Shown here: piece after piece, positions 8,891 to 32,688 of the stretch
Layout: each line of letters opens with the position of its first letter
Position numbering within the stretch: position 1 is the first letter of the stretch
Assembly: GCA_044229975.1 (NCBI GenBank)
Contig: JBGARZ010000032.1
Span: forward strand, 1-39,807
Source of the DNA: Polyangiales bacterium
Lineage (GTDB): Bacteria; Myxococcota_A; Polyangia; Polyangiales; Ga0077539
Direction of reading: 5' to 3'
DNA length: 39,807 bases
Made by a program: the position numbers and the translations under genes
The notes under the pieces: model-generated
The model's database searches: none
Told to the model about the DNA's origin: nothing
The model's input: only the letters and a program-made list of their open reading frames with translations

Positions 8891-8909
8891 GACGCGCAGT
8901 AGGTCGACC

Positions 8910-10026: not shown

Positions 10027-10053
10027 GACGGGCGGTCGACCAAGACCCTGACA
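10027..10053 (-). promoter_or_regulatory. ECF-type promoter motif copy 1 (TGTCAG-N17-CGTC), upstream of greA-like operon
   Basis: Minus strand TGTCAG GGTCTTGGTCGACCGCC CGTC, then 8 nt to the ATG. Confidence 0.75.
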
Positions 10054-10139
10054 GACGCCGACGAGGCGCGTCGCGTGGCCCGACGAGGCCCATTTTCGGT
10101 GGCACCCGGTGTACCGTCAGCGCTCGCAGGGAGGACGCG

Positions 10140-11915
10140 TTGCTCGATCGAACCACCGCCCGCCACGGTCTTCCGCACCCGCTGGCGCTGCTGTACGACC
10201 GCCTCAACCAGCACGACCCGCGGGTGAAGCTCACGGAGCTGTTGCGCTTCGCCGAGGGCACCGCGCGCTTCCTCGCGTGGGTGCTCGTCGCCGAGGCCGC
10301 GGCCCGCGGGCTCCCACCCAGGTCGCTGCGAGACCTCGTGAAGCCCGGCGCGGGCTTCGGCTTCTTCCTCCACGTGATCGAGCGCACCATCCGCGAACGG
10401 CGGTCCCGGCCGGACGGTTTCTTGCGCCCGCTCGACGCCTTCCTCGACGACCCAGCGTGGTCGGCGTTGCAGGTCTTCAACGAGCTGCGCAACGAGGTTG
10501 CGCACCACCGGCTGTCGAGCTCCGCGGAGACGGCGCGCGCCCTGCTCGCCGCGCACCGCGACCACCTCCAGCACCTGCTCGACGGCGTCGCGTTCCTCAC
10601 GCGCTACCCACTGGGGGTGCCGCGCGGCCCGCGCGTCGGGCTCGACGGCGTGGTGACCGCGCACTGGTTCGCGTGCCGCGGGCTCTCGCTGCACAGCGGC
10701 AACATCGAGATCGCCGACGCAGCCCAGCTCCCGAGCGAGCAGCTCCTCCTCGTCGACCCCGACGCGCGCCTCGCGCTGACGCTGACGCCCTTCCTCCTTT
10801 GCACCGAGCAGGCCTTCTGCTGGCTCGACCTGCCGAGCCCTCACGACACCAGCCCGCGGTCGGTCTACGCGCGACCCCTGTCCGGCGATGCGCTCCCAGC
10901 CGGGACGCCCTCGGGCCTCCTCGACGCGACCGGCGCGTCGCCGGATGGGTTGAGCCTCGACGCGTGGCTGGCCGACCCCCGACAGCGCGGGCGCCTCGTC
11001 CCGCTCCGTCTGGATGCGCCGTCGCTGCGCGCGATCGTGCAGAGCGCGGCGCCGACGCAAGCCATCGAGATGCAGCCGGGCCCGGCCGCGTGGGTCATCA
11101 GTTCCGAGGCCCCGGCCGCGCCCGCACCCAAACTGGCCCCGGCCGCGCCCGTGCCGTGGGTGCCGACGATGGTCATACACTCAGTGCCCGTGCCGCTCAC
11201 GTCGATCGAGAGCATGGCGCCCGTGGCCAGCGAGCGACCCCGCTCCGCGGACGGGAAGTCGGACGGGCGAGCGCTGCCCCTGATCCTGGTAGCCGCGATC
11301 GGAACGACCCTGGCAGGGACGATGCTCGTGCTGGCCCTCCTCCGCGGCACCCATCCGCGTGAGCCCCTCGCGTGGTCATCCTCGCCGACGGCTTCGCCGG
11401 CGGCCTCGCCGCCTCCGGCGCCAGCGCTGCTTTCCTCGAACCCTTCGTTGCAGCAGTGGGTGCAGACGTGGCTGCCCTCCCTCGATCGCCTCGACGACCG
11501 CATGCGCGCTCGCTACGCCGACCGGGTGGCGTTCCACGGCATGTCGCGCAACCAGGACCCGTCGTTCATCCTCGGTCGCTGGCGCGAGCGCCTCCTGGCC
11601 GGGACCTTCGCCGTCGATCTGGCGCGCTCGACCTGGTACGAGACCGCCGAGACCGAAGCCAACGTGCCGGCGGCGTGTCGCGACCTACCCGGCGCCGACC
11701 CGGGGGTCACGCTGGCGCGACTCGAGGCCGACGAGGACGGCGCGCCGCAAGGACGGTCCTTCGCCACGAGCGGCGTCTGCTCGCGGGTGCGAGGTGCCTA
11801 CCTGCTGCGCTCCCGCGTCGTCGCCGGCCGTCGGATCATCTGCCATGAGACCTGGCATCAGGAAGCGGTCTGCCGCTCGTGTCCGGGCTTCTCCAACTGC
11901 TCTCGCGGTCGGTAG
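10140..11915 (+). CDS. HEPN-like N-terminal domain + Pro/Ala linker + single TM helix + Cys-containing extracytoplasmic domain
   Basis: TTG at 10140 after GGAGGA, in frame with track ORF 9966..11915. RNEVAH at 10488-10505. TM segment LPLILVAAIGTTLAGTMLVLALL. Several Cys in the C-terminal domain. Confidence 0.7.
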   Translation: MLDRTTARHGLPHPLALLYDRLNQHDPRVKLTELLRFAEGTARFLAWVLVAEAAARGLPPRSLRDLVKPGAGFGFFLHVIERTIRERRSRPDGFLRPLDAFLDDPAWSALQVFNELRNEVAHHRLSSSAETARALLAAHRDHLQHLLDGVAFLTRYPLGVPRGPRVGLDGVVTAHWFACRGLSLHSGNIEIADAAQLPSEQLLLVDPDARLALTLTPFLLCTEQAFCWLDLPSPHDTSPRSVYARPLSGDALPAGTPSGLLDATGASPDGLSLDAWLADPRQRGRLVPLRLDAPSLRAIVQSAAPTQAIEMQPGPAAWVISSEAPAAPAPKLAPAAPVPWVPTMVIHSVPVPLTSIESMAPVASERPRSADGKSDGRALPLILVAAIGTTLAGTMLVLALLRGTHPREPLAWSSSPTASPAASPPPAPALLSSNPSLQQWVQTWLPSLDRLDDRMRARYADRVAFHGMSRNQDPSFILGRWRERLLAGTFAVDLARSTWYETAETEANVPAACRDLPGADPGVTLARLEADEDGAPQGRSFATSGVCSRVRGAYLLRSRVVAGRRIICHETWHQEAVCRSCPGFSNCSRGR

Positions 11916-11948
11916 CGCCGCGCGAACTGTTCGCGTCTCTTCAGTAGC

Positions 11949-11975
11949 TGTCAGGTCGGATCGTCGCCTTACGTC
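11949..11975 (+). promoter_or_regulatory. ECF-type promoter motif copy 2, upstream of UvrD-nuclease
   Basis: TGTCAG GTCGGATCGTCGCCTTA CGTC in the intergenic gap. Confidence 0.75.
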
Positions 11976-12045
11976 AACGGGACAACGGCCCCCCAGACGA
12001 GCTCCTCGCCGTCGGGGTCGACCACTTCTCCCTGGAGGTCCTCCG

Positions 12046-14829
12046 ATGACGCAATCCGCGTTCGCCGCCGTCGCCCCGAAGCCCCTCACGTACTCTCCCG
12101 AGCAGCGGCGCATCATCGAGCACCGCGACGGTCACCTCCAGGTCGTCGCTTGCGCCGGCTCGGGCAAGACCGAGACGGTCTCCATGCGCGTCGCTCGCCT
12201 CCTCGCGGAGGGCGTCGCGCCCTCGGGCATCGTCGCGTTCACCTTCACCAACGCGGCCGCCGACTCGCTCAAGACCCGCATCCTGAAGAAGGTCCAGGAG
12301 GTCGATCCCGGCCGCAACCTCGACGCGCTCTCGCCGATGTTCGTGGGCACCATCCACGCATTCTGCCTGCGCTTCCTGCAAGACCGCGCGCCCCGCTACG
12401 CGACCTTCGACCTCTACGACGAGCACCGCCTCGCGGGGTTGCTGACCCGCGAGTACCGGGCCGTCGGCCTCGACAGGCTCGGCACGCGCAACATGACCGC
12501 GGCGATCCAGGAGTTCCTGAGGACCGCGGCCATCGTCGAGAACGAGATGATCGACCCGCGATCGCTCCCGGAGTGCGCCTTCACGGACTGCTACCGCCGC
12601 TACCTCGACGTCCTCGACCGCTACCACGTGCTCACCTTCAACCAGGCCATCGCCCGGGCGGTCGCCGAGGTCTCCAAGGAGCACGTCCGCGACGCCTTCC
12701 GCGCGGGCCTGCGCCACCTGATCGTGGACGAGTTCCAGGACATCAACCCCGCCCAGGCGCGGCTCATCGAGCTGCTCGGCGCGAGCCCGGTGCGCACCTG
12801 CGTGGTGGGCGACGACGACCAGGCCATCTACCAATGGCGCGGCTCCTCGGTCGGGTACATCCAGCGATTCCAGGCGCAGTTCCGTGCGCACCGCGAGACG
12901 CTCGCGGTCAACCGACGATCCCGCCGCGCCATCGTCGACGCGGCGGCGCGCTTCGCGGCGTCGATCCCCGCGCGCATCCCCAAGGACGTCTCCGCCTCGC
13001 GCGACGACCACGAGCGGGCCGTGCAGCGCTTCGTGGCGCCCGACGCGGCCGCCGAGGCCGGGATGATCGCCGACGCCATCGCGCGGATGCACGCCGCGGG
13101 CGTCGCCTACCGCGACGTCGCGGTGCTGCTGCGCTCGATGAAGTCGTCGGGCGGGGCCTTCCTCGACGCCCTCGACGCGCGCAACATCCCCTACCAGTGC
13201 GACGGCCGCGCGGGGCTCTTCCTGCAACCCGAGGCCGAACTCCTCGGCGACCTCTACGCCCACCTCGCGGGCCGCGACGAGTTCTGGAACGCCCGCGCCC
13301 GCGAGATGCAACCGGTCACGCTCGACGCGCTCCTGCCGCGGGTGCAGCAGGTCTTCGGGCTGCCCAAGGGGAAGCTCCCGCTGGTGAAGAGCCAGCTCGC
13401 GACGTGGCGCGTGCAGCTCCCGACGCTGCGCGACGCCGACCTCGTGGGCAGCCTCTACCGGCTGCTGCACCTGCTGGGCGTCGACGCCTGGGACGCGGGC
13501 GACCCGGCGGTGGCGCGGCGGCTGGGGGTCCTCGCGCGCTTCAGCGGGCTGCTCGCCGACTTCGAGAGCGTCACGCGGCGCGCGCGGAAGGTCGACGACC
13601 CGGCGGCGGGGCGGGTGGTGCGCGGAGGGCAGGCGGGCGGCGCCGAGTACCTCGACAAGCTGGCCAACTACATCTCGTACTACGCGCAGGGCGCCTACGA
13701 GGACTTCGAGGGTGAGCCCGACTTCGACGTGGACGCCGTGACCATCAGCACGGTCCACGGGGCCAAGGGGCTGGAGTGGCCGGTGGTGTTCGTGCCGTGC
13801 CTGTCGGGCAAGCGCTTCCCGTCGATGTTCGCGGGCCGCGTGCAGCCGTGGCTGCTGCCGCGGTCGCTCTTCCCGGCGGCGCGCTACGAGGGCTCCGACG
13901 ACGACGAGCGCCGGCTCTTCTACGTGGCCGTCACCCGCGCGCGCGACCACGTCTTCCTCTCGACGCACGAGGCCGTGACGACCGCCCGCGTGGCCCGGTC
14001 GCCGTACTTCAAGGAGGTGTGCGGCGCCGACGTGGCGGTCTCGCCGAAGCCCATCTGGGTGCCGACGAGCCTACCCCCGCGGGGGCCCGAGGCCGACGAG
14101 AAGCCGACCTTCTCGTTCTCGGAGCTCGTCCAGTACGGCAACTGCCCGATGCAGTACCGGCTGCGCAACCGCATCGGCTTCCAGCCGCCCGCGGTGAAGG
14201 AGCTGGGCTACGGCAAGGCGGTGCACCACGTGCTGCGGCGCCTCGCGGAGTACGTGCGCGACCTGCACGCGCTGCCGACCAAGGCGGAGGTGGACGCCAT
14301 CTTCGACCGGGAGTTCTTCCTGCCCTTCGCGGACAGGCCGGCGTGGGAGACGATGGAGGCGGCGGCGCGCACGCTCGTCGGCCGCTACACGACCGACTTC
14401 AAAGCGGACCTTCAGCGGGTGTGGGAGGTGGAGCGGTCGTTCGAACTGCACCTCGAACACGCCAACGTGAAGGGTCGCGCGGACGTCATCCTGGACCGGG
14501 AGGACGGCATCCCGGGGGGCCTCGCGCTGGTGGACTACAAAACGCGGGGGGTGTCGGCCGACGACGCGGACATGGACCTCCAGTTGAAGGTCTACGCGGC
14601 GGCGGCGCGGGGGGAGGGCTTCGACGTGCGCGCGGCATACCTGCACGACCTGACGGCGGCGAAGGGCGCGGCGCGGGTGAGGGTGGCCGTCGGGCCGAAG
14701 GAGGTCGCGGCGGCGACAGAGCGGCTGTCGGAGATGGCGCGGGGGATCCGGGCGCGGGAGTTCCCGGCGAGGCCGGGGGCGCAGTGCGAGCGCTGCGACG
14801 TGCGCGGGGTCTGCGGGAGCGCGGGGTAA
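12046..14829 (+). CDS. UvrD/REP SF1 helicase fused to C-terminal PD-(D/E)xK nuclease with 4-Cys Fe-S motif (AddB/Cas4-like)
   Basis: ATG 12046 after GGAGG. ACAGSGKT, VDEFQD, VGDDDQAIYQWRG, TVHGAKGLEW, RRLFYVAVTRAR. Nuclease motifs NCP, GRADVI, VDYKT, QLKVY, CERCDVRGVC. Confidence 0.92.
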   Translation: MTQSAFAAVAPKPLTYSPEQRRIIEHRDGHLQVVACAGSGKTETVSMRVARLLAEGVAPSGIVAFTFTNAAADSLKTRILKKVQEVDPGRNLDALSPMFVGTIHAFCLRFLQDRAPRYATFDLYDEHRLAGLLTREYRAVGLDRLGTRNMTAAIQEFLRTAAIVENEMIDPRSLPECAFTDCYRRYLDVLDRYHVLTFNQAIARAVAEVSKEHVRDAFRAGLRHLIVDEFQDINPAQARLIELLGASPVRTCVVGDDDQAIYQWRGSSVGYIQRFQAQFRAHRETLAVNRRSRRAIVDAAARFAASIPARIPKDVSASRDDHERAVQRFVAPDAAAEAGMIADAIARMHAAGVAYRDVAVLLRSMKSSGGAFLDALDARNIPYQCDGRAGLFLQPEAELLGDLYAHLAGRDEFWNARAREMQPVTLDALLPRVQQVFGLPKGKLPLVKSQLATWRVQLPTLRDADLVGSLYRLLHLLGVDAWDAGDPAVARRLGVLARFSGLLADFESVTRRARKVDDPAAGRVVRGGQAGGAEYLDKLANYISYYAQGAYEDFEGEPDFDVDAVTISTVHGAKGLEWPVVFVPCLSGKRFPSMFAGRVQPWLLPRSLFPAARYEGSDDDERRLFYVAVTRARDHVFLSTHEAVTTARVARSPYFKEVCGADVAVSPKPIWVPTSLPPRGPEADEKPTFSFSELVQYGNCPMQYRLRNRIGFQPPAVKELGYGKAVHHVLRRLAEYVRDLHALPTKAEVDAIFDREFFLPFADRPAWETMEAAARTLVGRYTTDFKADLQRVWEVERSFELHLEHANVKGRADVILDREDGIPGGLALVDYKTRGVSADDADMDLQLKVYAAAARGEGFDVRAAYLHDLTAAKGAARVRVAVGPKEVAAATERLSEMARGIRAREFPARPGAQCERCDVRGVCGSAG

Positions 14830-14835
14830 GGCGGG

Positions 14836-17800
14836 TCAGCGGAAGCGCAACACGAGCGCGGCGAGGCGTGGCTCGGCGTCCGGTTCGCAGTGCGCCACTG
14901 CGGCGCAGAAGCGCTCGACCATGTCGACGCGGAGCAGCGGCCCGAGCGAACGCACGAGCGCGCGGACCAGGGACGGGTCGACGATCTCGATGGCGGCCTT
15001 GGTCAGCGCCAGGAGCGCCTCGGCGGTGTCGTCCATCTGCCGGGCCAACCGGACGGCACCGTCATGGTCGCCCGAGCGGAGGAGCGTCACCGCGACCTCT
15101 CGTTGGACCTCGACGAGGTCGTGCTCCTCGACGGTGAGATCGGACAACTTCATGGCCTCGTCGAGGCGCCCCACGTGGGCGAAAGCCTTTGCGACCTCAG
15201 CGCAATACCCGCTCCCCTTGATCGGCTCGCCGTCCCAGGTTTGGACCATCGTGCGGGCCTCATCGAGGAGAGCATCCACCTCGGAGGCGAAGCCACGGCC
15301 GGAGAGTTCCGCGGCGAGTTGGGCCATGAGCACCGGCTTGCTGGTGGCGTCCAACTCTCTCGACATGGCAATCGCCAGCATCGGGGCACGCCGGGAGACG
15401 CCGCGCAGGACGTCCGAGACGTCGGCTTCGTCGAAGGGGAAGCCGTAGTCGTCGTCCGAGCGCGTCAAGATCGCCTGTGCGACGTCTCGCGCGCCCGATT
15501 CTGGCGCTACGTCATCAACTCGGACGTCGAAGGCCTCCGTCAGGGCCACCATCAAGCGGATTCCGTCGAGGAGGGCCGCCTCGCTGCCAGCTTCCGACGC
15601 CCGTGTACACCAGTCGTAGGCCGCCCGAGACAGCGCGGAAGTCGGGATGTCCGCCGCCGAATGCCCCAGGATCAACGCGCTCGCGAGCGAGAAGTCGCCT
15701 CCCCGTGCGACCTCGGAGGCCAGGGACCAACGGGTCGTGTCGGGCAGGTCGAGCGCGCCTTCGCGGCCGCGGCCGATCGCCTCCAGGCGGACCGCAAACT
15801 CTTCGGCGCGCTCTGCCCGCACGGCCCGCGCGAGCACAATCACTTCGGGAACGACGGCCACCCGAGCCCTCGCGCGAGCGCGCGTCGTCGGCCACCAATC
15901 GTGTCGATCATGGGCCCTTGCCACCGACCAGTTCGCCCAGAACCTCAGCACCCGCAACGCACTCTCCCCGTCGTCGGGCCGCGCGTGGAGATGCTCGTCG
16001 AGACGTTCGAGCGCGACCGAGCCGTCGCCACGGAGGAGTGCCGACAACGCCTCGTCGGCTGCCGTGCGACCGGCGAACAAACCGCCGGCGAGCGCTCGGA
16101 CGATCGCCGCCTGATCTTCCCGCCACTCGTTGCGTCCTCGAGAGAACAAGATCTCGCTGACATCCGGCCTCTTCGTCTTCAGGAGCCGCGCCACCTCCTT
16201 CCGCACATCGCGCAGCCCGAGACGTTCTTCCGCCGCGAGCACGATCGTCGTCGCCGGGCCGATGTCCCATTCCCACTCGCGAGGCAGCCGCGCACGCGCG
16301 GCATTGGCGCCGAGAGTGAGCAGGGCCTCTTCAACTCGCTCGAACCCTCCCGGCCAGGCGACGAAGCTCCCCGTACGATCTGTGGTCGCGTGCGTCTCGC
16401 CGAGGGGGCCCGCCTCGATCGGAGTCAAGCCCGACAAGACGTCGAAGAGTTTGCGCCGACGTTGTTCCCAGAAGTCCTCAGCCGGCCCCATCCGCCACGT
16501 TGCATCCCGCGAGATCCCGATGGCGTCGATGGCCGCGCTACCGAGAGCGTAGAAGTGACCTGCCTCGCCCCAAGAGTGCAGCCGTCCCATCTCGAGCTCC
16601 ACCTCGCCCCGTCGTGCGCCGAACTCCTCTACCTGACCGGTCGCGGCGAGCTCCCAAAGCAAGAGCAGCTTCCAGCGGGTCGCCTCTCTCGGCTTCAGGC
16701 GATCGGCCAGCGCCCAGGCCGACGCGCCCTTCCCCGCCCGGAGCAGGTCGAGAGGGTCACTCGCTTTGACCAACACCTCCCCCCGCCGCCGAGCCCCCAC
16801 CGCCCATGCTTCGGCCGCCCGCAAGAGGTCTCCGTCCGCGAAGGACGCCTCCGCGGCGCCGTCGATCCAGCGCAGTGCACTCGTCGCATCGCCGTCGTCT
16901 GCCGCCGTCAACGACGTCAGGAAGTCTTCATCCGTGCCGAGGGAGATGCGCAGACTCCGGGCATCACGAGAGAGAGTCTCGTCGGCGTCCGCCTCGATGC
17001 GGGGGAGCACGATTTCAGCTTCCCGCAGCACCGGCACGCGGACCTCGTCGGGGGCCTCCCCCCAACGCTCGATCGCGCGGAGCCACGCCTTGCGCGACCA
17101 CCAGCGCACTGCCCTGATCTCCGCGGCGTGGTCGAGATAGAAGCGCAGTGTTTCGTGCCGTAGCGACCACCGACCGTCCGTCCTTCGCAGGTAGGTCGAC
17201 CCGAGGTCGAGCGAATGGGCCAGAAGATCCTCCCAGACCGGCGCCCCGCGGAGCATGTGCGTCGACAGCAGCGCCTCCAGGGTCCCGTGCGGCAGCCCCG
17301 GGGCAGTGGCCAGCACCGACATCGCCGCGATCAGGACCGAGCCTGTGTCGCCGATCTGGCTTCGCCGGAGAGAGCGGCGGTACGCGTCTTCCAGACCGGT
17401 CGGCAGCTGCGCGGCGTCGAAGGGGGCCCGTCCCGCCGCGAGGTCCGCCACGACGGTCGCGAGATAGAGTGGGATCCCCCGCGCCTGGTCGGCGACCGCC
17501 GCGATGAAGGCCTCGAACCCCTCCGCGCCCCGCTCGAAGAGCACGTACCGGCGGGGGCCGAGGGCGTCGCGCAGGTAGGCCATGGCGTCCTCGCGGGCGA
17601 GGGGGCGCAACCCCTCCGGGAGCGGCCGCACCGCGTCGACCAACGCCTCCGTCAACGCGCGATCGGGCCGACCGGAACAGACGACCCCGACGCCATCCCC
17701 CGCGAGGCCGACGAAGGATCGCGCGAAGCCCGCGGACTCCTCCTCGATCTCGTCGAGGGCGTCGACGATCACGACCACGGGCCGCCGTCGAGCGTGCGCC

Positions 17801-19008
17801 AGGGCGCGAAGCCGGTCGCGCGCCCGTTCGATGAGGGGCCGAGGCTCCGCTGGGTCCTCCTCGGGGCCGAGCCGCTCATCGACGAAGCGACACAGTTGTC
17901 GGTTGAACGAGCGAGCCAGCAGCGCCGCGCCGCCCGGCTCCGGGAAGAACGGAACGACGAGCCGTTGCGTCGTATCGAGAAGCTCGGCGGTGACCGAGGC
18001 CAGGAGCGCCGACTTCCCGACGCCCGGTTCGCCTGGGAGCCAGACGACGTCGTCGGGGTGGTTCGCGATCGACGCGAGGAGGGAGGCTCGGTCCGCCTCG
18101 CGTCCGACCAAGCCCTCCGAGAGTTGTCGCAGTCGGTTCGCCAACGCGTCGGGGCCGCGCGCGTCAGGTGATCGATGCCGGTTCGGCCCGAAGGCGTCAT
18201 CGACGCTTCGACCGACGTCTCCGGCCAGTCGGATGGGCGGCAGATCGTCGCCGGGCACGCAGTACTCGACCCCGCCGGGCGCCTCCCGCCGGAAGTACAC
18301 TAGGAGCGCGGTCCGGGGCGGCGCGTCGGGCTCCACGGGGGAGCTCACCGATTCGAGACGAATGAAGGGCGACGCCGAGCAGCGCCCCTCGGACCACGCG
18401 ATGCTCACCGCGGAGTCGTGCGCGCCGTCGTCGACCGCTCTGGCACCTCGGAGCGGTATCGGCGTTCCGTCCGGGCGCTTCCCTTCCAGCGAGACCGCCG
18501 ACAGGAAGTCGAGTCGAGAGAGCGCCTCGTCGAGGCGGTCGCGCCACCGACGCCACCACGCATCCGTCGTCTTCGGTCCGAGCGGGCCGACGTGGGCGAG
18601 GCGGTTGCGGAGCGCCAGAAGCGACTCTTCGGGCCGCTCGCGAGCGACACCGAGCAGCGGGGCGAGGTCACGCTCGGTCCAGGAGCGCAGGGTCAGCAGC
18701 ATCGGTTCCGGCTGCCGTGGGTCTTTGCCCGTGAGGCGCTTCAGCGCGGACGACCAACTACCCAGCGAGGGACGGTCGAGCCCTTCCAGCAATCCGCTCG
18801 CGCCGAGGTCTATGCCCGCGGCGCGAAGCGCGCAAAGGTGCAGCAGGGTTCCGAAGCGAACCGCCGCCTCGATCGCGTCGCACCCGCGCCACAGCGCCTC
18901 CCAGGGATTGTGCGCCAGCGCGTACTGCGTGACGGGTCCCGCCACCGGCGTCGGCCAGCGGTTGGCGAGGGCGCGCAAGTGCGATGGCGGGAGAGGGCGC
19001 TCCTCCAT
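14836..19008 (-). CDS. STAND/NACHT-like P-loop NTPase with N-terminal HEPN-like domain and C-terminal TPR-like repeats (Avs-like architecture)
   Basis: RNRLAH at 18592-18609; LVGRE; Walker A GEPGVGKS; Walker B VIVDALDE; GIPLYL; HETLR; helical repeats such as AHVGRLDEAMKL and SGDHDGAVRLA. ATG abuts the upstream stop. Confidence 0.82.
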   Translation of the reverse strand: MEERPLPPSHLRALANRWPTPVAGPVTQYALAHNPWEALWRGCDAIEAAVRFGTLLHLCALRAAGIDLGASGLLEGLDRPSLGSWSSALKRLTGKDPRQPEPMLLTLRSWTERDLAPLLGVARERPEESLLALRNRLAHVGPLGPKTTDAWWRRWRDRLDEALSRLDFLSAVSLEGKRPDGTPIPLRGARAVDDGAHDSAVSIAWSEGRCSASPFIRLESVSSPVEPDAPPRTALLVYFRREAPGGVEYCVPGDDLPPIRLAGDVGRSVDDAFGPNRHRSPDARGPDALANRLRQLSEGLVGREADRASLLASIANHPDDVVWLPGEPGVGKSALLASVTAELLDTTQRLVVPFFPEPGGAALLARSFNRQLCRFVDERLGPEEDPAEPRPLIERARDRLRALAHARRRPVVVIVDALDEIEEESAGFARSFVGLAGDGVGVVCSGRPDRALTEALVDAVRPLPEGLRPLAREDAMAYLRDALGPRRYVLFERGAEGFEAFIAAVADQARGIPLYLATVVADLAAGRAPFDAAQLPTGLEDAYRRSLRRSQIGDTGSVLIAAMSVLATAPGLPHGTLEALLSTHMLRGAPVWEDLLAHSLDLGSTYLRRTDGRWSLRHETLRFYLDHAAEIRAVRWWSRKAWLRAIERWGEAPDEVRVPVLREAEIVLPRIEADADETLSRDARSLRISLGTDEDFLTSLTAADDGDATSALRWIDGAAEASFADGDLLRAAEAWAVGARRRGEVLVKASDPLDLLRAGKGASAWALADRLKPREATRWKLLLLWELAATGQVEEFGARRGEVELEMGRLHSWGEAGHFYALGSAAIDAIGISRDATWRMGPAEDFWEQRRRKLFDVLSGLTPIEAGPLGETHATTDRTGSFVAWPGGFERVEEALLTLGANAARARLPREWEWDIGPATTIVLAAEERLGLRDVRKEVARLLKTKRPDVSEILFSRGRNEWREDQAAIVRALAGGLFAGRTAADEALSALLRGDGSVALERLDEHLHARPDDGESALRVLRFWANWSVARAHDRHDWWPTTRARARARVAVVPEVIVLARAVRAERAEEFAVRLEAIGRGREGALDLPDTTRWSLASEVARGGDFSLASALILGHSAADIPTSALSRAAYDWCTRASEAGSEAALLDGIRLMVALTEAFDVRVDDVAPESGARDVAQAILTRSDDDYGFPFDEADVSDVLRGVSRRAPMLAIAMSRELDATSKPVLMAQLAAELSGRGFASEVDALLDEARTMVQTWDGEPIKGSGYCAEVAKAFAHVGRLDEAMKLSDLTVEEHDLVEVQREVAVTLLRSGDHDGAVRLARQMDDTAEALLALTKAAIEIVDPSLVRALVRSLGPLLRVDMVERFCAAVAHCEPDAEPRLAALVLRFR

Positions 19009-20745
19009 TCAATACGGATACTCCCGAGCGAGGCGGCGGCCCTGCTCGACCGGCGTGATGTCGGGCGCGAAGAGCCAGCGCACGCCCTGGGGGTTCGCAT
19101 CGCGAATCGCCGCGATCGCCGGGGTCGGGTCAGCGCCCTGCTCCAGCGCTTCATCCAAGCGCGCGAAGATGCTCTCGATGGTCGGCCCGCCACCGTCGTC
19201 GAGCTCCGCGTGCAGGGCGGCCCTGAGCTCCTTCGCGCGGGTCGCCTGCCCGCTTGCGACCCGCGCGATCGCGTCCCAACGCCGGGCCGAGCGCCAGAGG
19301 AACGGCGGCACGTGTCTGCGATCGATGCTCGCGAGATGGTGGAGGCCCGCCGCGAAGTCCCCGCGCGTGACGAGCCCACGACCGAGCGCGAAGCGCACGA
19401 AGGCCGGGCCGAGGTCCGCGGGATCGTCGGCCGCGAGGTATGGCGCCGAGCAGCCGACCGCTTCCGACCAGCGCGACTCGTCGTCCGTGATCGCGGCGAC
19501 CCGCAGCCATTCGCTCAACGGGTAAGAAGCTTCTGCCACCCCGCCGTCGTCGAGCCAGCTCTGCGTCGCGGGCGCGAGGTGTCGCGCGGCCTTGGCGTAT
19601 CGCCGTTGCGCCGACAACGCCCGCCCGACCGCGCCTGCGAGCTTGCGCTCGGCAGGACCGTCATGGCCGTGACCCAACAGCGACTCGGCGCGCCGCAGGC
19701 AGTCGTCGATGGCGGCGACGCCCGCGTCCGCGGCGGCCTGCACCACGTGCGCAGCCATCTCGCAGTCGTAGGCGGGAACCACCGCCTCGTCCCAGTCGAT
19801 CGCGATGGACTCCCCTTGGGCGTGGCGGCGCGCGATCTGCGCCGCGACCCGCAATCGCGACGTCATTGGCGACCCGAGGTCGCTGCGCGCCGCGAGCCAC
19901 TCCGCCGAGCGGACGACCGCGCCCCAGAGCGGCAGCGGCGCGCCCTTGCGGCACAGTTCGATCAGGTCGTTGATGACGGCCCGCGCCCCGCCGCCCTCCC
20001 ACGCCGCGGGTGGCGCCTCGCGCGCCTCGGGAAAGACGCGCCCGACCGCTTGCGAAACGCTCGCGAGGCCGATCACCCGAACCCGGCGGGGCTGCCCCGC
20101 GAGCAGCGACTCGGCCTCGGCCGCCTGCTCCTGCGCCACGAGCACGGTGTCCACGGCGAGGGCGTTCTCGACGATCATCGACAGCTTGCGCTCGAGTCCG
20201 TCGACCCGTCGCAGCGAGCCGTCCGCATCGACGATCGCCGAGGCCGCGAGGCGCTCCGACACCGGGCGGCCCATGAGCTCCGAGGCCGCCGCCAGGGCGA
20301 GCGAGAGCCCGTAGGAGCGGTCGTCGAGCACGCGGTCGAGGTCGTCGCCGCGCTTGCAGATCCGCAGCGCGCTCCGCGGCCACTGCGAGGGCATCGCCGG
20401 GGCGATTGTGTGGAGGTGCGGGACGGCGCCCGACGCGCATCGGGCGGCGCGCTCCAGGCTGACGCCCATGGTCGTCCCGAAAGGGACGCCCGGCTGATGG
20501 AGCGGGTGCTTCCAGCGGAGCGCCCACAGCCCTTCCCGCGCGGTCCCTTCGGCGACCGACACCAGCAACACCTCGCCGCGTTTGGGGGGCGCTGGCGGCT
20601 GTGCGGCGTAGCTCCGCGCTGTCGCCTGCAGGGTCAGATCGCTCGGCCAGCACCAGGGAAAGGAGAGGGCGTTCTCGACGGCGCCGCGCAGGTAGGGCGG
20701 CACCGGGGCGCCGCCGAGGGCCTCGCGCACCGACAGCCGGTTCAC
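19009..20745 (-). CDS. Stand-alone Lon (S16) protease domain, no AAA+ module, followed by TPR-like repeats (578 aa)
   Basis: GTG 20745 overlaps the upstream TGA, after GGAGGAG. In DDRSYGLSLALAAASELMGRPV...VDADGSLRRVDGLERK the Ser and Lys are 43 residues apart, as in E. coli Lon S679/K722. No Walker A motif. Confidence 0.78.
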   Translation of the reverse strand: MNRLSVREALGGAPVPPYLRGAVENALSFPWCWPSDLTLQATARSYAAQPPAPPKRGEVLLVSVAEGTAREGLWALRWKHPLHQPGVPFGTTMGVSLERAARCASGAVPHLHTIAPAMPSQWPRSALRICKRGDDLDRVLDDRSYGLSLALAAASELMGRPVSERLAASAIVDADGSLRRVDGLERKLSMIVENALAVDTVLVAQEQAAEAESLLAGQPRRVRVIGLASVSQAVGRVFPEAREAPPAAWEGGGARAVINDLIELCRKGAPLPLWGAVVRSAEWLAARSDLGSPMTSRLRVAAQIARRHAQGESIAIDWDEAVVPAYDCEMAAHVVQAAADAGVAAIDDCLRRAESLLGHGHDGPAERKLAGAVGRALSAQRRYAKAARHLAPATQSWLDDGGVAEASYPLSEWLRVAAITDDESRWSEAVGCSAPYLAADDPADLGPAFVRFALGRGLVTRGDFAAGLHHLASIDRRHVPPFLWRSARRWDAIARVASGQATRAKELRAALHAELDDGGGPTIESIFARLDEALEQGADPTPAIAAIRDANPQGVRWLFAPDITPVEQGRRLAREYPY

Positions 20746-21806: not shown

Positions 21807-21868
21807 CCCAATGCTCCGATCTCGTTCACGGCGCCCCGGAGGGGGAGCCTTGTCCCGGTGACCTGGCG

Positions 21869-21895
21869 GACGACGGTGGCCCGACCCACCTGACA
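21869..21895 (-). promoter_or_regulatory. ECF-type promoter motif copy 3, upstream of hypothetical-Lon-STAND genes
   Basis: Minus strand TGTCAG GTGGGTCGGGCCACCGT CGTC, just downstream of the sigma gene stop. Confidence 0.75.
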
Positions 21896-21912
21896 CCCGC
21901 CCGGACGATTTC

Positions 21913-22611
21913 TCACCGCCGACGGAATTCCAGCACCACGCGCTCGAGCAGCGCGAACTCGTCCGCGCTGCGGCGCCCGTCCCGATGCTGGCGTGCAGCC
22001 GTGGCGATCAGCGCCTCGCGGGCCCGCTGGTGGTTCTTCATCGCGGCGTCCATGGCGCGCTTCAGATCCGCCGCGGGCGTGTCGTCGGGCAGGTTCCCGT
22101 CCCGCATGACCACCGCGGCCACGGTGACGTCGCCGTCGAAGAGCTCGAGCATCTGTCGGATCGCGTGGGATCGGCCCTCCCGATACCGCGGCTCGGTCTC
22201 CTTCAGCGTCTCGGCGATGGTCTCCTCCAGCAGCGCCATCGCGCGCCGTCGACCCTCCTCCTCGTCGACCGCGTCCGCGAAATGGACCCCTCCGTCCGCC
22301 GCGTCGTCGAAGACCTCCGGTGACGTGGGGGCGTAACGGCGGACCTTGCGGTGGCCGTCGTGCCAGCCGTTCTGGACCATGCGGTCGACGTACCGGACCA
22401 CCGCCCCGTCGTCGGTGCGCTCAAAGGACAGGGTGCCCTGCCGGGCCCGCTGCGCGAACTTCAGGAGCACATTCTGGCGGGCCTCGTCGCGGTCGACCGG
22501 GTTGTTGATCCGCCGCTCCGCCCGATCGCGCACGAGGCGGTCGAGGGCCTCCCAGGCCTCCTCGGCGTTCGCGTCGCCCTGGAGCGCCTGGATGATCTCC
22601 GAGGGCCTCAC
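21913..22611 (-). CDS. Divergent ECF (sigma-70 group 4) sigma factor (232 aa)
   Basis: C-terminal part of track ORF 21913..23541; GTG 22611 overlaps the upstream TGA. Region 2-like AWEAL..DRDEARQNVLLKF..VVRYVDRMVQNGWHDGHRK; region 4-like AIRQMLELFDGDVTVAAV..AMKNHQRAREAL. Confidence 0.72.
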   Translation of the reverse strand: MRPSEIIQALQGDANAEEAWEALDRLVRDRAERRINNPVDRDEARQNVLLKFAQRARQGTLSFERTDDGAVVRYVDRMVQNGWHDGHRKVRRYAPTSPEVFDDAADGGVHFADAVDEEEGRRRAMALLEETIAETLKETEPRYREGRSHAIRQMLELFDGDVTVAAVVMRDGNLPDDTPAADLKRAMDAAMKNHQRAREALIATAARQHRDGRRSADEFALLERVVLEFRRR

Positions 22612-23759: not shown

Positions 23760-23855
23760 GAGCTGCGCGGCGGAGGGTACACGCGGCCCGCGCGGCCTGG
23801 CCAGGGGGGAGCTTGCGCCACTGATGTCGTCGACGGACGCCGCTTGCTGATTGGC

Positions 23856-23882
23856 AGTCAGGCTGCGCGCCTTCGGCGCGTC
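23856..23882 (+). promoter_or_regulatory. ECF-type promoter motif copy 4, upstream of DEAH helicase
   Basis: AGTCAG GCTGCGCGCCTTCGGCG CGTC, then 9 nt to ATG 23892. Confidence 0.72.
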
Positions 23883-23891
23883 CCTCCAGGC

Positions 23892-26408
23892 ATGAACACC
23901 TCGTCGTCTCTGCCGTTGGCCCGTCACCTCCACTCCTCGCTCTCCTCCCAGGGCTTCGCCCTCGTCGGTCAGACGGACCTCCCCGCCCGCGCCGCGCGCC
24001 TCGTCGCGCCCCCGTCGGCGCTCGACGCCAGGGTCCGCGCCCGACTCGAGGACGCCTACCCCCGAGGCATCTACACCCACCAGGCCGAGGCCCTGGGCCT
24101 CCAGGCCGACGGCCACGACGTCTGCCTCGCCACGCCGACGGCCTCCGGCAAGAGCCTCGTGTTCATGGGCGCGGCGCTCGACCTCGCCCTGCGCAACCCA
24201 TCCGCGCGCGTGCTGGTGCTCTACCCCATGCGCGCACTGCTCCAGGACCAGGCTTCGCGCTGGGGCGCCTTCCTCGACGGGAGCGGCGTCTCCCACGCGG
24301 TCGTCGATGGGGGCGTTCCGGTCGGTCAGCGGGCGGCGCTCCTCCGCGACCACCGGGTGGTGCTGATGACGCCCGACGTGTTGCACGCGTGGCTCCTGTC
24401 GCACCTCCACGTCCCCGAGGCGGCGGACTTCGTCGCCCGGCTCGGGCTCCTGGTGCTCGACGAGGCCCACGCCTACGACGGCGTCTTCGGCACCAACATG
24501 GCATTCCTCCTTCGCCGGCTGCGCGTCGCCGCCAGGGACCACCGGCTGATCGCGAGCACCGCCACGATCGACGACCCGGAGGGCTTCCTCCGGCGCCTCG
24601 CGGGCCGCACCGTCGCGGTCGTCGGACCCGCCGCCGACGGGTCCTTCGCGCCGGCCCGCAGCATCCTCCACCTGCGGGCGGACAAGTCGAAGCGCGACCG
24701 CAACCGCGCCATGGCCAACGTCGTAGCGACGCTCGCCGAGGGCGACCAGCGCTTCCTCGTGTTCGCTGACTCGCGCAAGGGGGTCGAGCAGATCACCGCG
24801 CTGGCCCACGAGCGCATGCGCCGCATGAGCGCGGAGGTGTCCGAGGAAGGCGCGGGCCCCGAGGCCCGGGTGCTGCCCTACCGCGCGGGATACGAGACCG
24901 AGGACCGCGTGGCCATCCAGCAGGCCCTCGCCAGCGGGACGCTCGTTGGCGTGGTCGCCACCGCTGCGATGGAGCTCGGCCTCGACATCGGCGAGATCAA
25001 CGTGGTCGCCATGATGGGCGTCCCGGCGACGGTCAAGTCGTTCCGCCAGCGGCTCGGTCGCGCGGGGCGTCGCGGCCCGTCGGTCTGCCTGCTGTGCGAC
25101 GTCGATCAGGCGCTCGGCGCCGGGCCCGACGCGCTCGCCGCGTACCTCGCGCGCCCCGCGGAGCCGAGCTGGGTCTACCTCGACAACCGCTACCTCCAGT
25201 ACGCCAACGCGCTCTGCGCGGCGGTCGAGAGCGCGACGCACGGCCGCGGCGCCGGGCACTCCGCCTACGACGACCTGCCCGACGCCTTCCGCGCGCTACT
25301 GGCCAACGAGCTCGACCCGCAGACCCTCGTCGCGTCCGACCTCTATGAGCTCAAGCAGCGCGCCGCGAACGGACCGCACATGGTCTTCCCGGTGCGTCAG
25401 GGGATGGAGCAGAGCTTCGAGGTTCGCGGCCCCGGGGAGCTACCGCTCGGTCAGGTGTCGTTCTCGCAGATGCTGCGCGAGGCCTACCCCGGCGCGATCT
25501 ACCTGTACAAGGCCGTGGCGTGGCGGGTGCGCAGAATGGACGCCGCGAAGGGGCGCATAACCGTCGCGCGCGATAGGCGCGGCGAGACGCAGCCGACGAA
25601 GCAGTCGAAGGTGTTCCCCGAGTTCGCCGGGGCCATGCAGATGCAGCGCGGGGACCTCGGGTTCGTCACCGAGGCGCCGGTGCAGGTGAGTGAGAGGGTG
25701 CTGGGCTTCAGCGAGGGCCGCGGCGGCACGAAGGTCGTGCACGAGTACGGTCCGGCCTCGCCGTTCTCGCAGCGGCCGCTGAACCACTTCTTCCCGACCA
25801 CCGGGGTGTGCTGGTACTTCCCGCCGAAGGCCGTCGTCAGCGAGGGCGTGGCGGAGGCCATCCGTGCGGCGTTCTGCGAGCGCTTCAACGTGCACGAGAG
25901 CGACGTCGGGGTGGGAACGTTCCACTCGAAGGCTTCGCCTTTGGGCGCGCAGACCTGCGAGGGCATGTGCCTGTACGACGCGGTGCATGGCAGCCTGCGC
26001 CTGACCCAGCGGCTCGCGGAGCACTTCGGGGAGGTCGTCGGGCTCGCGCTCGAGCGGGCCAGGAGGGAAGGGCTCACGGGGCGCGTGGCCGACCTGACGA
26101 CGCTGGCGGGCTACGTCTCCACGACGCGGCCTGCGGTGACCCCGGCGACGGCATCGGCGCCTCTCACCTCCGAGGAGGGCGACTGGATGGACGTGGTCGC
26201 GGACGGCGAGACAGCCATGCTGACGCAGGGCGGGAACGCGCGGGAGGTCACGATCGTGGGGTTCCGGTACACGGCGCGTGGGCCCCTCTACGAGCTGACG
26301 CCCGAGGCGCCCGGCGTGCGGCAGTGGGTGGCTTTCGGAGCGGTGCAGCCCATCCACGGTCAGACCCGGGTCGAGCGGCGCAACCTGTTGACCGACGCCG
26401 TGGCGTAG
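23892..26408 (+). CDS. MrfA/SftH (YprA)-like DEAH-box SF2 helicase
   Basis: YTHQAEA, TPTASGKS, LYPMRALLQDQ, LDEAHAYDGVFG, YRAGY, MELGLDIG, QRLGRAGRR, EAYPGAIYL, LYDAVHG. Confidence 0.88.
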   Translation: MNTSSSLPLARHLHSSLSSQGFALVGQTDLPARAARLVAPPSALDARVRARLEDAYPRGIYTHQAEALGLQADGHDVCLATPTASGKSLVFMGAALDLALRNPSARVLVLYPMRALLQDQASRWGAFLDGSGVSHAVVDGGVPVGQRAALLRDHRVVLMTPDVLHAWLLSHLHVPEAADFVARLGLLVLDEAHAYDGVFGTNMAFLLRRLRVAARDHRLIASTATIDDPEGFLRRLAGRTVAVVGPAADGSFAPARSILHLRADKSKRDRNRAMANVVATLAEGDQRFLVFADSRKGVEQITALAHERMRRMSAEVSEEGAGPEARVLPYRAGYETEDRVAIQQALASGTLVGVVATAAMELGLDIGEINVVAMMGVPATVKSFRQRLGRAGRRGPSVCLLCDVDQALGAGPDALAAYLARPAEPSWVYLDNRYLQYANALCAAVESATHGRGAGHSAYDDLPDAFRALLANELDPQTLVASDLYELKQRAANGPHMVFPVRQGMEQSFEVRGPGELPLGQVSFSQMLREAYPGAIYLYKAVAWRVRRMDAAKGRITVARDRRGETQPTKQSKVFPEFAGAMQMQRGDLGFVTEAPVQVSERVLGFSEGRGGTKVVHEYGPASPFSQRPLNHFFPTTGVCWYFPPKAVVSEGVAEAIRAAFCERFNVHESDVGVGTFHSKASPLGAQTCEGMCLYDAVHGSLRLTQRLAEHFGEVVGLALERARREGLTGRVADLTTLAGYVSTTRPAVTPATASAPLTSEEGDWMDVVADGETAMLTQGGNAREVTIVGFRYTARGPLYELTPEAPGVRQWVAFGAVQPIHGQTRVERRNLLTDAVA

Positions 26409-26430
26409 TCGCGCGGTTGGGATCTCCTCC

Positions 26431-26454
26431 GACGGCGTGTTGCGAGACGCCGTC
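26431..26454. terminator. Inverted repeat between convergent genes (candidate bidirectional terminator)
   Basis: GACGGCGT-gttgcgag-ACGCCGTC, a perfect 8-bp stem. Confidence 0.45.
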
Positions 26455-28645: not shown

Positions 28646-28757
28646 ATCACGAGCTCCAGGCACCGATTGTCGAGAGTCCAGATCTCTCTCCGCCCGCGGC
28701 CGCTGTTCGGCGCTCACCCACGCGTACCGGCCGATGCCTTCCGAGCGGCCGCGCCAC

Positions 28758-30785
28758 TCAGTCCGCCAGCCGCCATGCTCCGAGCTGCGTCAGGCCGGGG
28801 ACGTAGGCGTTGTATCGCGTGCGCACCTCCCGCCCAGCGGAAGCGCCTCCGGCCCCAAGAAGTGCACGCACGCTGCCGGCGCCCACCGCGAAGCCCGAGA
28901 TCAGCTGCGCGCCGTCCCCGTCGCCCGCGTCGATCGAGTACACGAGGAGGTGCGTATCCGTCCCGGCCTTCGGCAGTTCGATGAGGTCCGTGCGGCAGTC
29001 GATCTTCCGTGCCTCGGCGCCGGACGGGCTCACCGTCTCGACGACGCGGTGACGGCGGAAGCTTCCGTATGGGAGTGCGTGCAGCGCGGGCGGCACTCGC
29101 GCCTCGAAACCCTTGAGTCGGGCGAGCGGGGCATCCTCGCCCCGGAAGGCAAGCTGTCCGAAGAGCCAGGTCACGTTGGTGAGCAGCGTCCCCTCGTCGG
29201 GGGTCGGACCCAGCATTCCGGCGGGGAGTCCGAAGGAGAGCGCAAGCTCGGGGCCGACCCAGCGCTGGCGCTTGTAGCCGAACGATGTGCGCAACAGGCT
29301 GAACAGGTACCCGTAGGTGTGGGTCAGCCCGGCGTGCCACGCGGGACCGGCCGCGGTCTCCCCCGCGATAGCGGCGACCACGCCCAGGATTGTCGGATCG
29401 ACGATGGCCGCCAGAGCGAGCTCGTCGAAGTTCAAGCAGCGTCCCCACGACTCGAAGCACCCCTGGCACTCCCGCGCCCGGGCGATGTCACCGGCGATAC
29501 GCGGCGCTTGGGCCCGCAGTAGTTCCACGACCGCCGCGGGACTCGCGACCGCGACCATCGATCGAGCGAGGCCAGCCCAGGGGCAATCGAGCGCGCTCTC
29601 CCCTCGCGCGTGGTCGGGGCACTCGGGGTGCGAAGGTGCAACGGGCCAGCCCGGCTTAGGGAGGTCGCCATCGGCCCATTGAATGGTCGCCCCTTTCGGG
29701 TCGAAGAGGCCGTCCTTCTCCAACGCCGCGAGCCTGCCCAGCTCAGGCAGCAGGTGCGCGAGGGCGACGCCCGCGTTGTGCGCGGCAGCGAAGTTTTGGG
29801 AGTACTTGCGCGGCGTGACCTCGGCGTTGAAGTTGGGCACCCGGTCGGTGAGCGCCGACACGAAGAGGAAGGGCGTGTCGTGCCACACCAGCCGGATCAG
29901 GCCGTGGGTGGTCTCGGCCGATCCGATCTCGCGCTGCCTGACTTGAGTCTCGAAGCGGCGGTGCGTCTCCTCGTCGGCCCAGACATAGTCGTCATAGTCG
30001 CAGATGTTGAGCGTGCCGAGCGAGGCGTACCCGTGGCCCGCCAAGATGCGCGGAGGTCGCGCCGGATTGATCGGCGCCTCGATGAAGCGCCCTTCGGCGG
30101 CGTGCCGGCTCTCGACCGACACGCCCGTCGCGAAGAGCGACGCGCTCAGGCGCGGACAGTCGAGGCGCTTGTCGAACCAATCCGCGAGCGGCGCGTGCAA
30201 CAGGGGACCGAAGCGCCTCTCCTGCGTGGCGACCTCGTCCGGCGAGGCGTCGTGCCAGGGGTCGTGGATGTACGCGCGGCTGCCGATCGTGACGCAGCCG
30301 TTGAAGGTCTGATCGGCGGGGATACCCGCGGTGCCGAACGCGATGACGAGGTCGCAGCCCTGGCCCTCGAAGGCCCGTGCGCGGATGATGGGCAGCGCCA
30401 CAGTGAACTTCTCATGGCTCGACGAACCGCTGACCGGGGCGAGGCCGTCGGCGATGTGGCGCTGACGACGCATCCAGTCCTCGACGCACCACACCTCGAC
30501 CACGGCGACAGGGGCTTTGTGAGGGCCGACGTCGAAGGAGAGCCGGGAGCGGGCGGGGAGCGCGCTGCGCAACGCGAGCCCCTCCGCCTCCGGGGGTAGC
30601 GTCGGTGCGAGGCCGGTCGACGGATCGATCGCGGGGGCCCTTCCCGCCGGGTCGAAGCCACGCACGAAGTTGCCCAGCAGGCCTCCAGGCGGACCGTCCT
30701 TCGACAGCAGCACTGCGATCAGCGGATCACACTCCCACGTCTTGTTGGCCACGATCAGGATGCGGATGGGGGCGTTCGCCATCAT
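28758..30785 (-). CDS. Divergent purine/uridine phosphorylase (PNP_UDP_1)-fold domain fused to an unknown C-terminal domain
   Basis: ATG 30785 after GAGG. ILIVANKTWE, DLVIAFGTAG, GSAETT, PFLFVSALTD, AAAHNAG follow the order of nucleosidase-fold elements. The C-terminal domain has HAGLTHTYGYLFS. Confidence 0.6.
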   Translation of the reverse strand: MMANAPIRILIVANKTWECDPLIAVLLSKDGPPGGLLGNFVRGFDPAGRAPAIDPSTGLAPTLPPEAEGLALRSALPARSRLSFDVGPHKAPVAVVEVWCVEDWMRRQRHIADGLAPVSGSSSHEKFTVALPIIRARAFEGQGCDLVIAFGTAGIPADQTFNGCVTIGSRAYIHDPWHDASPDEVATQERRFGPLLHAPLADWFDKRLDCPRLSASLFATGVSVESRHAAEGRFIEAPINPARPPRILAGHGYASLGTLNICDYDDYVWADEETHRRFETQVRQREIGSAETTHGLIRLVWHDTPFLFVSALTDRVPNFNAEVTPRKYSQNFAAAHNAGVALAHLLPELGRLAALEKDGLFDPKGATIQWADGDLPKPGWPVAPSHPECPDHARGESALDCPWAGLARSMVAVASPAAVVELLRAQAPRIAGDIARARECQGCFESWGRCLNFDELALAAIVDPTILGVVAAIAGETAAGPAWHAGLTHTYGYLFSLLRTSFGYKRQRWVGPELALSFGLPAGMLGPTPDEGTLLTNVTWLFGQLAFRGEDAPLARLKGFEARVPPALHALPYGSFRRHRVVETVSPSGAEARKIDCRTDLIELPKAGTDTHLLVYSIDAGDGDGAQLISGFAVGAGSVRALLGAGGASAGREVRTRYNAYVPGLTQLGAWRLAD

Positions 30786-30904
30786 GGGTCTACCTCGACC
30801 TCTCGTTGTACGAGATCGTCCCGTCGGGGCGGAAGCGCATGCGCTGCGCCGCCCGTCATCCGTGTCGCCCCGATCACACCGCCGATGGGAATAGGCATTG
30901 CGGC

Positions 30905-30931
30905 TGTCAGCAGACCGCGGCACGCGCCGTC
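30905..30931 (+). promoter_or_regulatory. ECF-type promoter motif copy 5, upstream of DUF697 gene
   Basis: TGTCAG CAGACCGCGGCACGCGC CGTC, followed by GGAGG and ATG 30958. Confidence 0.72.
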
Positions 30932-32676: not shown

Positions 32677-32688
32677 TCGATGGCTCCC

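Follow-up and report, generated by a model that had tools for sequence, protein, structure and literature searches.

Contig JBGARZ010000032.1 of a Polyangiales bacterium (assembly GCA_044229975.1, 10 Mb, 71% GC) is 39,807 nt in length and is called the window here. It has several copies of the sequence WGTCAG-N17-CGTC and a gene for a putative sigma factor of the extracytoplasmic function (ECF) type. The locus raises the question of whether these copies are promoters and whether the sigma factor encoded among them is the one that reads them. Comparisons of sequences from this genome and its relatives suggest that the sigma factor reads TGTCAG-N17-CGTC, with a probability of about 0.72. Its gene is part of a cassette of four genes, i.e., gene X (DUF3800-like), the sigma gene, gene T (a candidate anti-sigma) and a gene for a Lon-type protease.

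The notation "x/10" gives the number of matching letters among the 10 fixed positions of the motif. Contigs of this assembly (G000) have C-numbers, the window being the whole of C18; G- and L-numbers denote other genomes and loci. Gene starts and intergenic status are from the authors' own codon-model gene calls.

Predicted promoters in the window

The motif is found six times in the window. Dinucleotide shuffles of the window give a mean of 0.37 matches and a maximum of 2, and 0/100 shuffles reach six. The spacer length is specific: when lengths of 12–23 nt are compared, N17 accounts for the six matches, N14 for one and the remaining lengths for none. Five of the six sites are intergenic, although intergenic DNA makes up 4.3% of the window. 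These five were listed in a preliminary description of the locus, and their coordinates and strands are as given there (Table 1). An equal frequency of the motif in random or coding sequence, an alternative that the description had raised, does not agree with the shuffles and the intergenic placement. All five sites point toward the next gene, as had been described, with start codons 9–71 nt after CGTC. The 17-nt spacers are indeed unrelated, with 3–8 identical bases in pairwise comparison. There is no match of 8/10 or better within 300 nt upstream of the unit formed by gene X and the sigma gene, in agreement with the preliminary description.

The motif is non-palindromic and strand-oriented, and its spacer is free in sequence at a fixed length. 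Its geometry is that of the ECF41 promoter, TGTCACA-n16-CGTC, where 23 nt separate the start of the -35 box from CGTC in the part of PMC3426412 covered here; this equivalence, too, had been pointed out. The sequence properties indicate that the motif is likely a -35/-10 promoter.

The sixth site is the exception to the earlier statement that every copy is intergenic. It uses the rare serine codon AGT, which represents 1.5% of serine codons, and a homologue of the kinase-GTPase gene in G015 has TGTCAG-N17-CGTC at the same place. Transcription of the GTPase half and of the helicase that follows may start from this site as an internal promoter.

Table 1. Features of the window and of related loci. 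Positions refer to the window unless a locus is named; distances of predicted promoters from genes are from CGTC to the start codon.
Feature	Position	Strand	Remarks
Predicted promoter, TGTCAG-N17-CGTC	10027-10053	-	9 nt ahead of GreA-like/dTMP-kinase-like/radical SAM unit
Predicted promoter	11949-11975	+	71 nt ahead of UvrD/PD-(D/E)XK gene
Predicted cassette promoter	21869-21895	-	17 nt past sigma stop codon, facing T-Lon-STAND; 63 nt ahead of gene T
Predicted promoter, AGTCAG variant	23856-23882	+	10 nt ahead of DEAH/MrfA-like helicase gene
Predicted promoter	30905-30931	+	27 nt ahead of gene for 122-aa hydrophobic protein
Sixth site	1827-1853	+	in frame within kinase-GTPase gene
Gene X, 383 aa	22608-23759	-	DUF3800-like, invariant acidic residues; 4-nt overlap with sigma start
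Divergent ECF-type sigma, 232 aa	21913-22611	-	sigma2 clear; sigma4 divergent, with insert and helical tail
Gene T, 354 aa	20742-21806	-	candidate anti-sigma, no known family
Lon-type (S16) Ser-Lys protease	19009-20745	-	C-terminal region TPR-like by eye only
STAND/NACHT-type NTPase	14836-19008	-	directly after Lon
Predicted target unit	7368-10018	-	GreA-like, dTMP-kinase-like, radical SAM, 207-aa open reading frame
Predicted target, UvrD helicase	12046-14829	+	with PD-(D/E)XK nuclease domain
Predicted target, DEAH-box helicase	23892-26408	+	weak match to MrfA Zn-binding domain
Predicted target, 122-aa protein	30958-31326	+	no family match
591-aa uncharacterised protein	10140-11915	+	hydrophobic stretch, Cys-rich end
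Dynamin-like GTPase pair and 396-aa partner	31486-37339	-	LeoA/LeoBC-like matches; no motif site upstream
Integrase	37744-39141
~90-aa hydrophobic genes replacing Lon	L041 1733-2002; L039 6941-7210; L042 18339-18620; L045 1535-1813; L046 18235-18492
Related ~400-aa uncharacterised genes after Lon	L002 9430-10674; L034 5659-6951; L036 2749-3936
Second, more distant sigma of G025	L052 14091-15783 (G025:C46)		4.7 kb from cassette
Repeat copy on C4	L094 1581-3093		group II intron reverse transcriptase

The motif in related cassettes

The gene order X - sigma - promoter - T - Lon recurs across relatives. Thirty-five sigma-like loci were examined, 28 with gene T directly behind the sigma gene and seven without a T match. 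In 27/28 sigma-T cassettes, from across the Myxococcota, a match of at least 9/10 is present within -96 to +70 nt of the sigma stop codon, compared with 34/1500 random windows; the cassettes are related and the promoter is co-inherited with the adjacent sigma gene, so that these counts are not independent. The association of the motif with loci that have homologues of this sigma is what the preliminary description had led one to expect. The spacer in the 27 cassettes is N17 in 24, N16 in two and N18 in one. Twelve of the sites are intergenic and 15 are within the coding tail of the sigma gene (14 in frame, one out of frame). One of the seven loci without a T match has a 10/10 match, which is out of frame. 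A second sigma in G025 ends in a perfect out-of-frame site, and the 324-aa gene behind it is not a clear T homologue.

The dipeptide CQ, encoded by TGT CAG, is present in the last 40 residues of 57/150 proteins of the sigma family, compared with three in a control segment. It may be a trace of the -35 box in the sigma tails.

A held-out set was provided by a search of the phylum for T, in which 20 of 22 further T places were retrieved, 18 of them with a sigma match upstream. Eight of the 18 distant cassettes have a 9/10 match, five of these with N16, compared with a background of 51/2000. In G233, the 60 kb around an N16 cassette contain six N16 sites and no N17 site, and one of the six is ahead of Cas6. 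G330, which also has an N16 cassette, has 22 N16 sites (three of them tandem copies), four N17 and six N19. A -10 variant, CATC, is found behind six sigmas; no matching cluster of CATC sites is present nearby, so that this variant gives no support from covariation. The sigma tree groups the N16 and the CATC cassettes by clade, a grouping that is explained by co-inheritance alone.

Sites across the genome

The whole genome has 40 matches at N17 and 8–26 at other spacers. Intergenic sites that face a gene within 250 nt number 13 at N17 and 0–5 at nine other spacings. The 13 sites are on C18 (five), C19 (four), C8 (two), C29 (one) and C36 (one). C19 carries a paralogous cassette with the same neighbour genes and four sites within 40 kb. 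Its sigma is 36% identical to the sigma of the window, and this second cassette could serve the island sites as well.

Genes behind sites outside the island encode a type I HsdR (C19), HsdM and a GTPase (C8), and Cse1 (C11). The gene before it, probably cas3, contains the C11 site in its 3' end. The preliminary description had proposed an island-wide regulon with enrichment confined to the island. The intergenic, gene-facing excess that it anticipated is present, and the confinement is not, since sites precede HsdR, HsdM, GTPase and Cse1 genes on other contigs. The predicted regulon is thus likely genome-wide rather than limited to the island.

Five near-identical repeats (C4, C14, C32 and two on C34) carry AGTCAG-N17-CGTC approximately 118 nt before an open reading frame, which in the repeat on C4 codes for a group II intron reverse transcriptase. 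These five sites share flanks and were set aside as one event, probably due to chance.

It is very improbable that the motif is a site of repression or recombination, or that a pattern due to chance was selected post hoc. The pattern was chosen from this window, background accounts for about half of the 40 matches in the genome, and five matches are the one repeat described above. Set against this are the replication of the pattern in the independent C19 cassette and in the 27/28 cassettes, its orientation, its free spacers of fixed length and its position ahead of start codons, as well as a geometry shared with an experimentally tested ECF promoter (PMC3426412, in the part covered).

The sigma factor and the reader of the sites

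The sigma of the window has no sigma match in Pfam or NCBIfam. However, 17/63 of its aligned relatives match Sigma70_r2 (PF04542), and the C19 paralogue exceeds the cut-off of this family. A profile of the sigma family, which has 169 representatives at 50% identity, matches RpoE, SigH and SigL at E values of 7e-6 to 1e-4. The structure model is all-helical, with a mean predicted local distance difference test (pLDDT) score of 77.6. It aligns to sigma2 of ShbA with Z 9.9 and a root-mean-square deviation (rmsd) of 3.4 over 95 residues. In a Foldseek search with the model no match reached E 0.001; the top rows are nonetheless ECF sigmas. The motif H-x-R-x-R is invariant in the sigma4 region of the family. 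Two observations on this region count against the assignment: the C-terminal half shows a weak match to sigma4 of SigL (Z 5.9, rmsd 4.4, 80 residues aligned), and no sequence match to solved structures was found for it.

By profile and structure model the protein is a divergent ECF-type sigma and not an ECF41 sigma, in keeping with the earlier proposal that the island encodes its own sigma. The SnoaL-like C-terminal extension of ECF41 is absent from it (232 aa, all-helical model, no TIGR02957 match). ECF41 was also considered as the reader of the sites, an alternative that the preliminary description had named, and was rejected for this genome. The genome has no TIGR02957 match over the cut-off, and TGTCAC sites show no excess in it (17 sites, one of them intergenic and gene-facing).

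A different, widespread ECF sigma of the Myxococcota could still read the motif. T-Lon would then be one more target, and the cassette sigma would have another promoter or none. The genome has 54 Sigma70_r2 matches, and promoters resembling TGTCA...CGTC are listed for several ECF groups (ECF37, 41, 42 and 131) in the part of PMC7826278 covered. The lack of a site upstream of the sigma unit, unlike in most autoregulated ECFs, fits this explanation, as does a site ahead of a GT4-radical SAM gene in G012. The cassette sigma as reader is favoured by the following. Only the C19 cassette sigma among the 54 has a 9/10 site nearby, and none of the 53 other sigma genes does; clusters of sites surround each of the two cassettes in this genome; in G233 and G330 the spacer and the cassette change in step; and the ECF41 search was negative. 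Reading by another sigma is considered unlikely.

Further counts bear on both explanations. In 16 same-family genomes with T, N17 sites outnumber frame-matched N20 sites by 269 to 137. Several results weigh against reading by the cassette sigma. In addition to the dependence among the cassette counts, 10/18 of the distant cassettes have no 9/10 match. The spacer shifts in only 2/5 genomes with N16 cassettes; counts of N16, N17 and N19 sites without a shift are 6/12/8 in G285, 3/2/7 in G111 and 26/28/17 in G184. G184 has N17 clusters ahead of Cmr2 and a GTPase despite its N16 cassette, and no second sigma of the family was found there. In 12 same-family genomes without a T match, the N17 and N20 counts are 117 and 79. 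No cassette was found in five genomes with excess sites, among them G043 (23 N17 sites compared with 8 at N20) and G044 (19 compared with 3). Incomplete metagenome-assembled genomes, orphan promoters on defence genes that have moved, or sigmas of the same specificity could each explain an excess without a cassette.

In G043 and G044, where no cassette was detected, many sites read TGTCAGTC-N15-CGTC, which suggests another sigma with related specificity.

Genes behind the sites

Fifty-nine genes were found behind sites, of which 49 were scanned after nine T genes and one duplicate were left out. A Pfam family was found for 24/49 proteins. Type I restriction subunits represent three (HsdR twice, HsdM) and CRISPR genes four (Cmr2 three times, Cse1). 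The others are bpMoxR, GT4-radical SAM, five helicases or nucleases, DUF4258 (two), GreA (two) and six more. The remaining 25/49 have no Pfam family, and the counts come from loci picked for cassettes or site clusters, with no matched control for defence-gene density; both points weaken the case for a defence regulon. A second set of targets added Cas6, Cmr2, a SLOG protein and a GTPase, but it included Hsp70, a GGDEF protein and a peptidase as well.

Two of the targets predicted in the window recur elsewhere with the motif. It is also ahead of GreA genes in G025 and G027 and ahead of UvrD-nuclease genes in G003 and G025.

The cassette proteins

Gene T was detected in 24/101 relatives and 23/301 genomes of the phylum (both counts include this genome), and in nearly all cases its place is behind the sigma gene. 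The T protein has no Pfam match, no sequence match in the PDB and no usable match in the ESM Atlas. Its model (pLDDT 86) consists of a beta domain, a disordered linker at 146–157 and a helical domain. No fold match reaches Z 8, the best being Z 6.5 to generic helical bundles, and the beta domain aligns to 1wv3 with Z 5.4 and rmsd 3.5 over 89 residues.

The protease domain matches E. coli Lon at E 8.8e-8, and its residues S143 and K186 show no variation among 12 Lon homologues. Pfam and NCBIfam gave no AAA+ or SAVED domain for the window protein, and the family profile matches protease domains only. In the 28 close cassettes T is followed by Lon in 18, by Lon on the opposite strand in one and by a gene for a hydrophobic protein of about 90 aa in five; in 4/28 the contig or retrieved stretch ends before the Lon position. 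At distant loci Lon was found in 12/20. Its absence after T in 5/28 close cassettes and the failure to find it at 8/20 distant loci speak against a general role for the protease in the switch. One clade has a conserved protein of about 90 aa instead of Lon, and its -10 box is CATC.

No sensor gene is conserved after Lon, and the STAND gene of the window has no counterpart among 17 following genes. A related uncharacterised gene of about 400 aa follows Lon in three cassettes.

The DUF3800 label that gene X had received is retained in part. DUF3800 (PF12686) is matched by 3/11 homologues, weakly (best E 5.9e-4), and the window protein itself is unmatched.

Prediction of a sigma-T complex gave a score of 0.50, which is weak support, and the best of three controls gave 0.00. 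Contact agreement between runs was at least 46% and partner pLDDT at least 77. In calibration the mark was reached by 116/157 solved pairs and 2/215 mismatched pairs; scores that reach the mark at 0.60 or below come from only 18/157 solved pairs and from both mismatches. An anti-sigma gene usually adjoins the gene of its ECF sigma. T is the likely anti-sigma of the cassette sigma.

A different arrangement, in which the sigma reads the promoter while T and the protease are outputs or activators, e.g., an effector and its processing protease, is fairly unlikely. The sigma would then be controlled otherwise, e.g., by gene X, its own helical tail or a kinase. All of the promoter evidence fits this arrangement equally. 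T is unlike solved anti-sigmas and its complex score is low, Lon is absent from several clades, and the overlap with the sigma start belongs to gene X. On the other side, T is found behind the sigma with very few exceptions and varies less than X or Lon do, the sigma-T score is 0.50 compared with 0.00 for the controls, and the position of T is the usual one for an anti-sigma.

Proposed mechanism

With T as anti-sigma, the cassette would work as follows. The sigma and gene X would be made from a separate, non-cognate promoter. T would bind the sigma and hold it in check, and since T would be made from the sigma's own promoter, this would constitute negative feedback. An infection signal would trigger the protease via its C-terminal region. 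As the analogous systems CalpL/T/S and Craspase suggest, T would be cleaved by the protease in the disordered linker. The freed sigma would transcribe T-Lon as well as the dispersed defence units, and the transcription of T-Lon would reset the switch. Feedback on presumed regulators had been proposed for this locus, and one predicted promoter does face T and Lon. The whole chain, in which the sigma reads the promoter, T is the anti-sigma and the protease releases the sigma, has somewhat less than an even chance of being correct.

Comparison with known systems

The papers cited in this section are covered in part, and the comparisons refer to the parts covered. The resemblance to ECF41 (PMC3426412) is in promoter geometry and in the TGTCA and CGTC cores. 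The motif of the window differs in having G, not C, as the sixth base of the -35 box. The window sigma also lacks the SnoaL extension and an adjacent flavoprotein/COE gene, has many predicted targets where ECF41 has one, and has no site upstream of its unit.

DdvS of Myxococcus xanthus has four GTAA-n16-CGT promoters spread through a defence island (CBASS, type III-B CRISPR) (PMC6061681, PMC11506125). DdvS-DdvA is similar in that an ECF sigma has several island promoters and is controlled by an anti-sigma and proteolysis, both of which are predictions for the present cassette. According to the same papers, ddvS is autoregulated from its own promoter type, whereas TGTCAG-N17-CGTC is behind the sigma gene here; DdvA is a transmembrane TPR-CHAT anti-sigma, whereas T, with 354 aa, belongs to no known family; and the targets predicted here are on several contigs.

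CalpL-CalpT-CalpS (bioRxiv 10.1101/2024.05.08.593097) likewise has adjacent genes for an AAA+-less Lon-type protease, a candidate anti-sigma or substrate and an ECF-like sigma, and the Lon domain with its Ser-Lys dyad is present here. Unlike CalpL, the window protease has no detected SAVED domain; there is no link between the cassette and a type III CRISPR locus; and T has no MazF-like or DUF2080 match, unlike CalpT. No CalpS promoter motif was found in the covered part of that preprint.

Craspase Csx29-Csx30-CASP-sigma (PMC10028731) is similar in having a protease-released ECF sigma with cognate motifs before the defence genes of its own locus. Its protease is a caspase-like TPR-CHAT protein activated by Cas7-11, whereas a Ser-Lys protease and no Cas7-11 are found here, and T was not matched to Csx30 in PDB searches. 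SAVED-CHAT/PCaspase/PCc-sigma of Haliangium ochraceum (bioRxiv 10.1101/2023.06.23.546230) also combines proteases with a sigma factor at a defence locus of the Myxococcota. It differs in being a caspase cascade triggered by cyclic oligoadenylate, with sigma targets left open by its authors.

The cassette would work like DdvS, CASP-sigma or CalpL/T/S in outline but fails the defining features of each and belongs to none. It is not described in the covered parts of PMC12839542, bioRxiv 2025.11.14.688446 and bioRxiv 2023.06.23.546230. The literature searched, as far as it was covered, has no account of the cassette or the motif; supplements to ECF classifications, covered in part, may class the sigma.

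Significance

How bacteria coordinate many unrelated and costly defence systems is a largely open question. The sigma-based cases DdvS, CASP-sigma, CalpS and PCc-sigma involve one locus each, or their targets are not known, in the parts of the sources covered. If the cassette sigma reads the motif, this sigma would be a shared on-switch for anti-phage defences such as restriction and CRISPR genes. This family offers a precise predicted promoter with natural N17 and N16 variants, and also a possible anti-sigma with no known fold and a protease that may act as the trigger. The motif would be useful as a search tag for new defence genes among proteins without a Pfam family.

A broader possibility, doubtful as a whole, is that the four genes form a mobile cassette that acts on its own as a master switch of immunity in the Myxococcota. 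A nucleotide-independent Lon-type protease would free a new family of sigmas whose promoter, often placed in the sigma's coding tail, would be a standard common to many genes. Genes for restriction, CRISPR, MoxR and helicase-nucleases would arrive by transfer already carrying this promoter, and would join one genome-wide inducible defence regulon.

Other features of the window

By its gene content the island looks defensive and mobile. In addition to the genes discussed it encodes the kinase-GTPase, an SNF2-type helicase (DrmD-like), a macro domain, a dynamin pair and an integrase (Table 1). The annotations are mostly domain-level matches below family cut-offs. No cas gene was found among the 22 window proteins scanned, the window being the whole contig, and no CHAT domain was found in these proteins. 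The 122-aa target had been labelled DUF697, a label that no Pfam match confirms. In the unit that begins with the GreA-like gene, the dTMP-kinase-like gene matches PADLOC PDC-M51B at E 2.8e-52 and the radical SAM protein has a weak likeness to viperin. The GreA-like, dTMP-kinase-like and radical SAM proteins of this unit are 72–92% identical in G003. Homologues of the 591-aa protein are near the cassettes on C19, in G003 and in G027.

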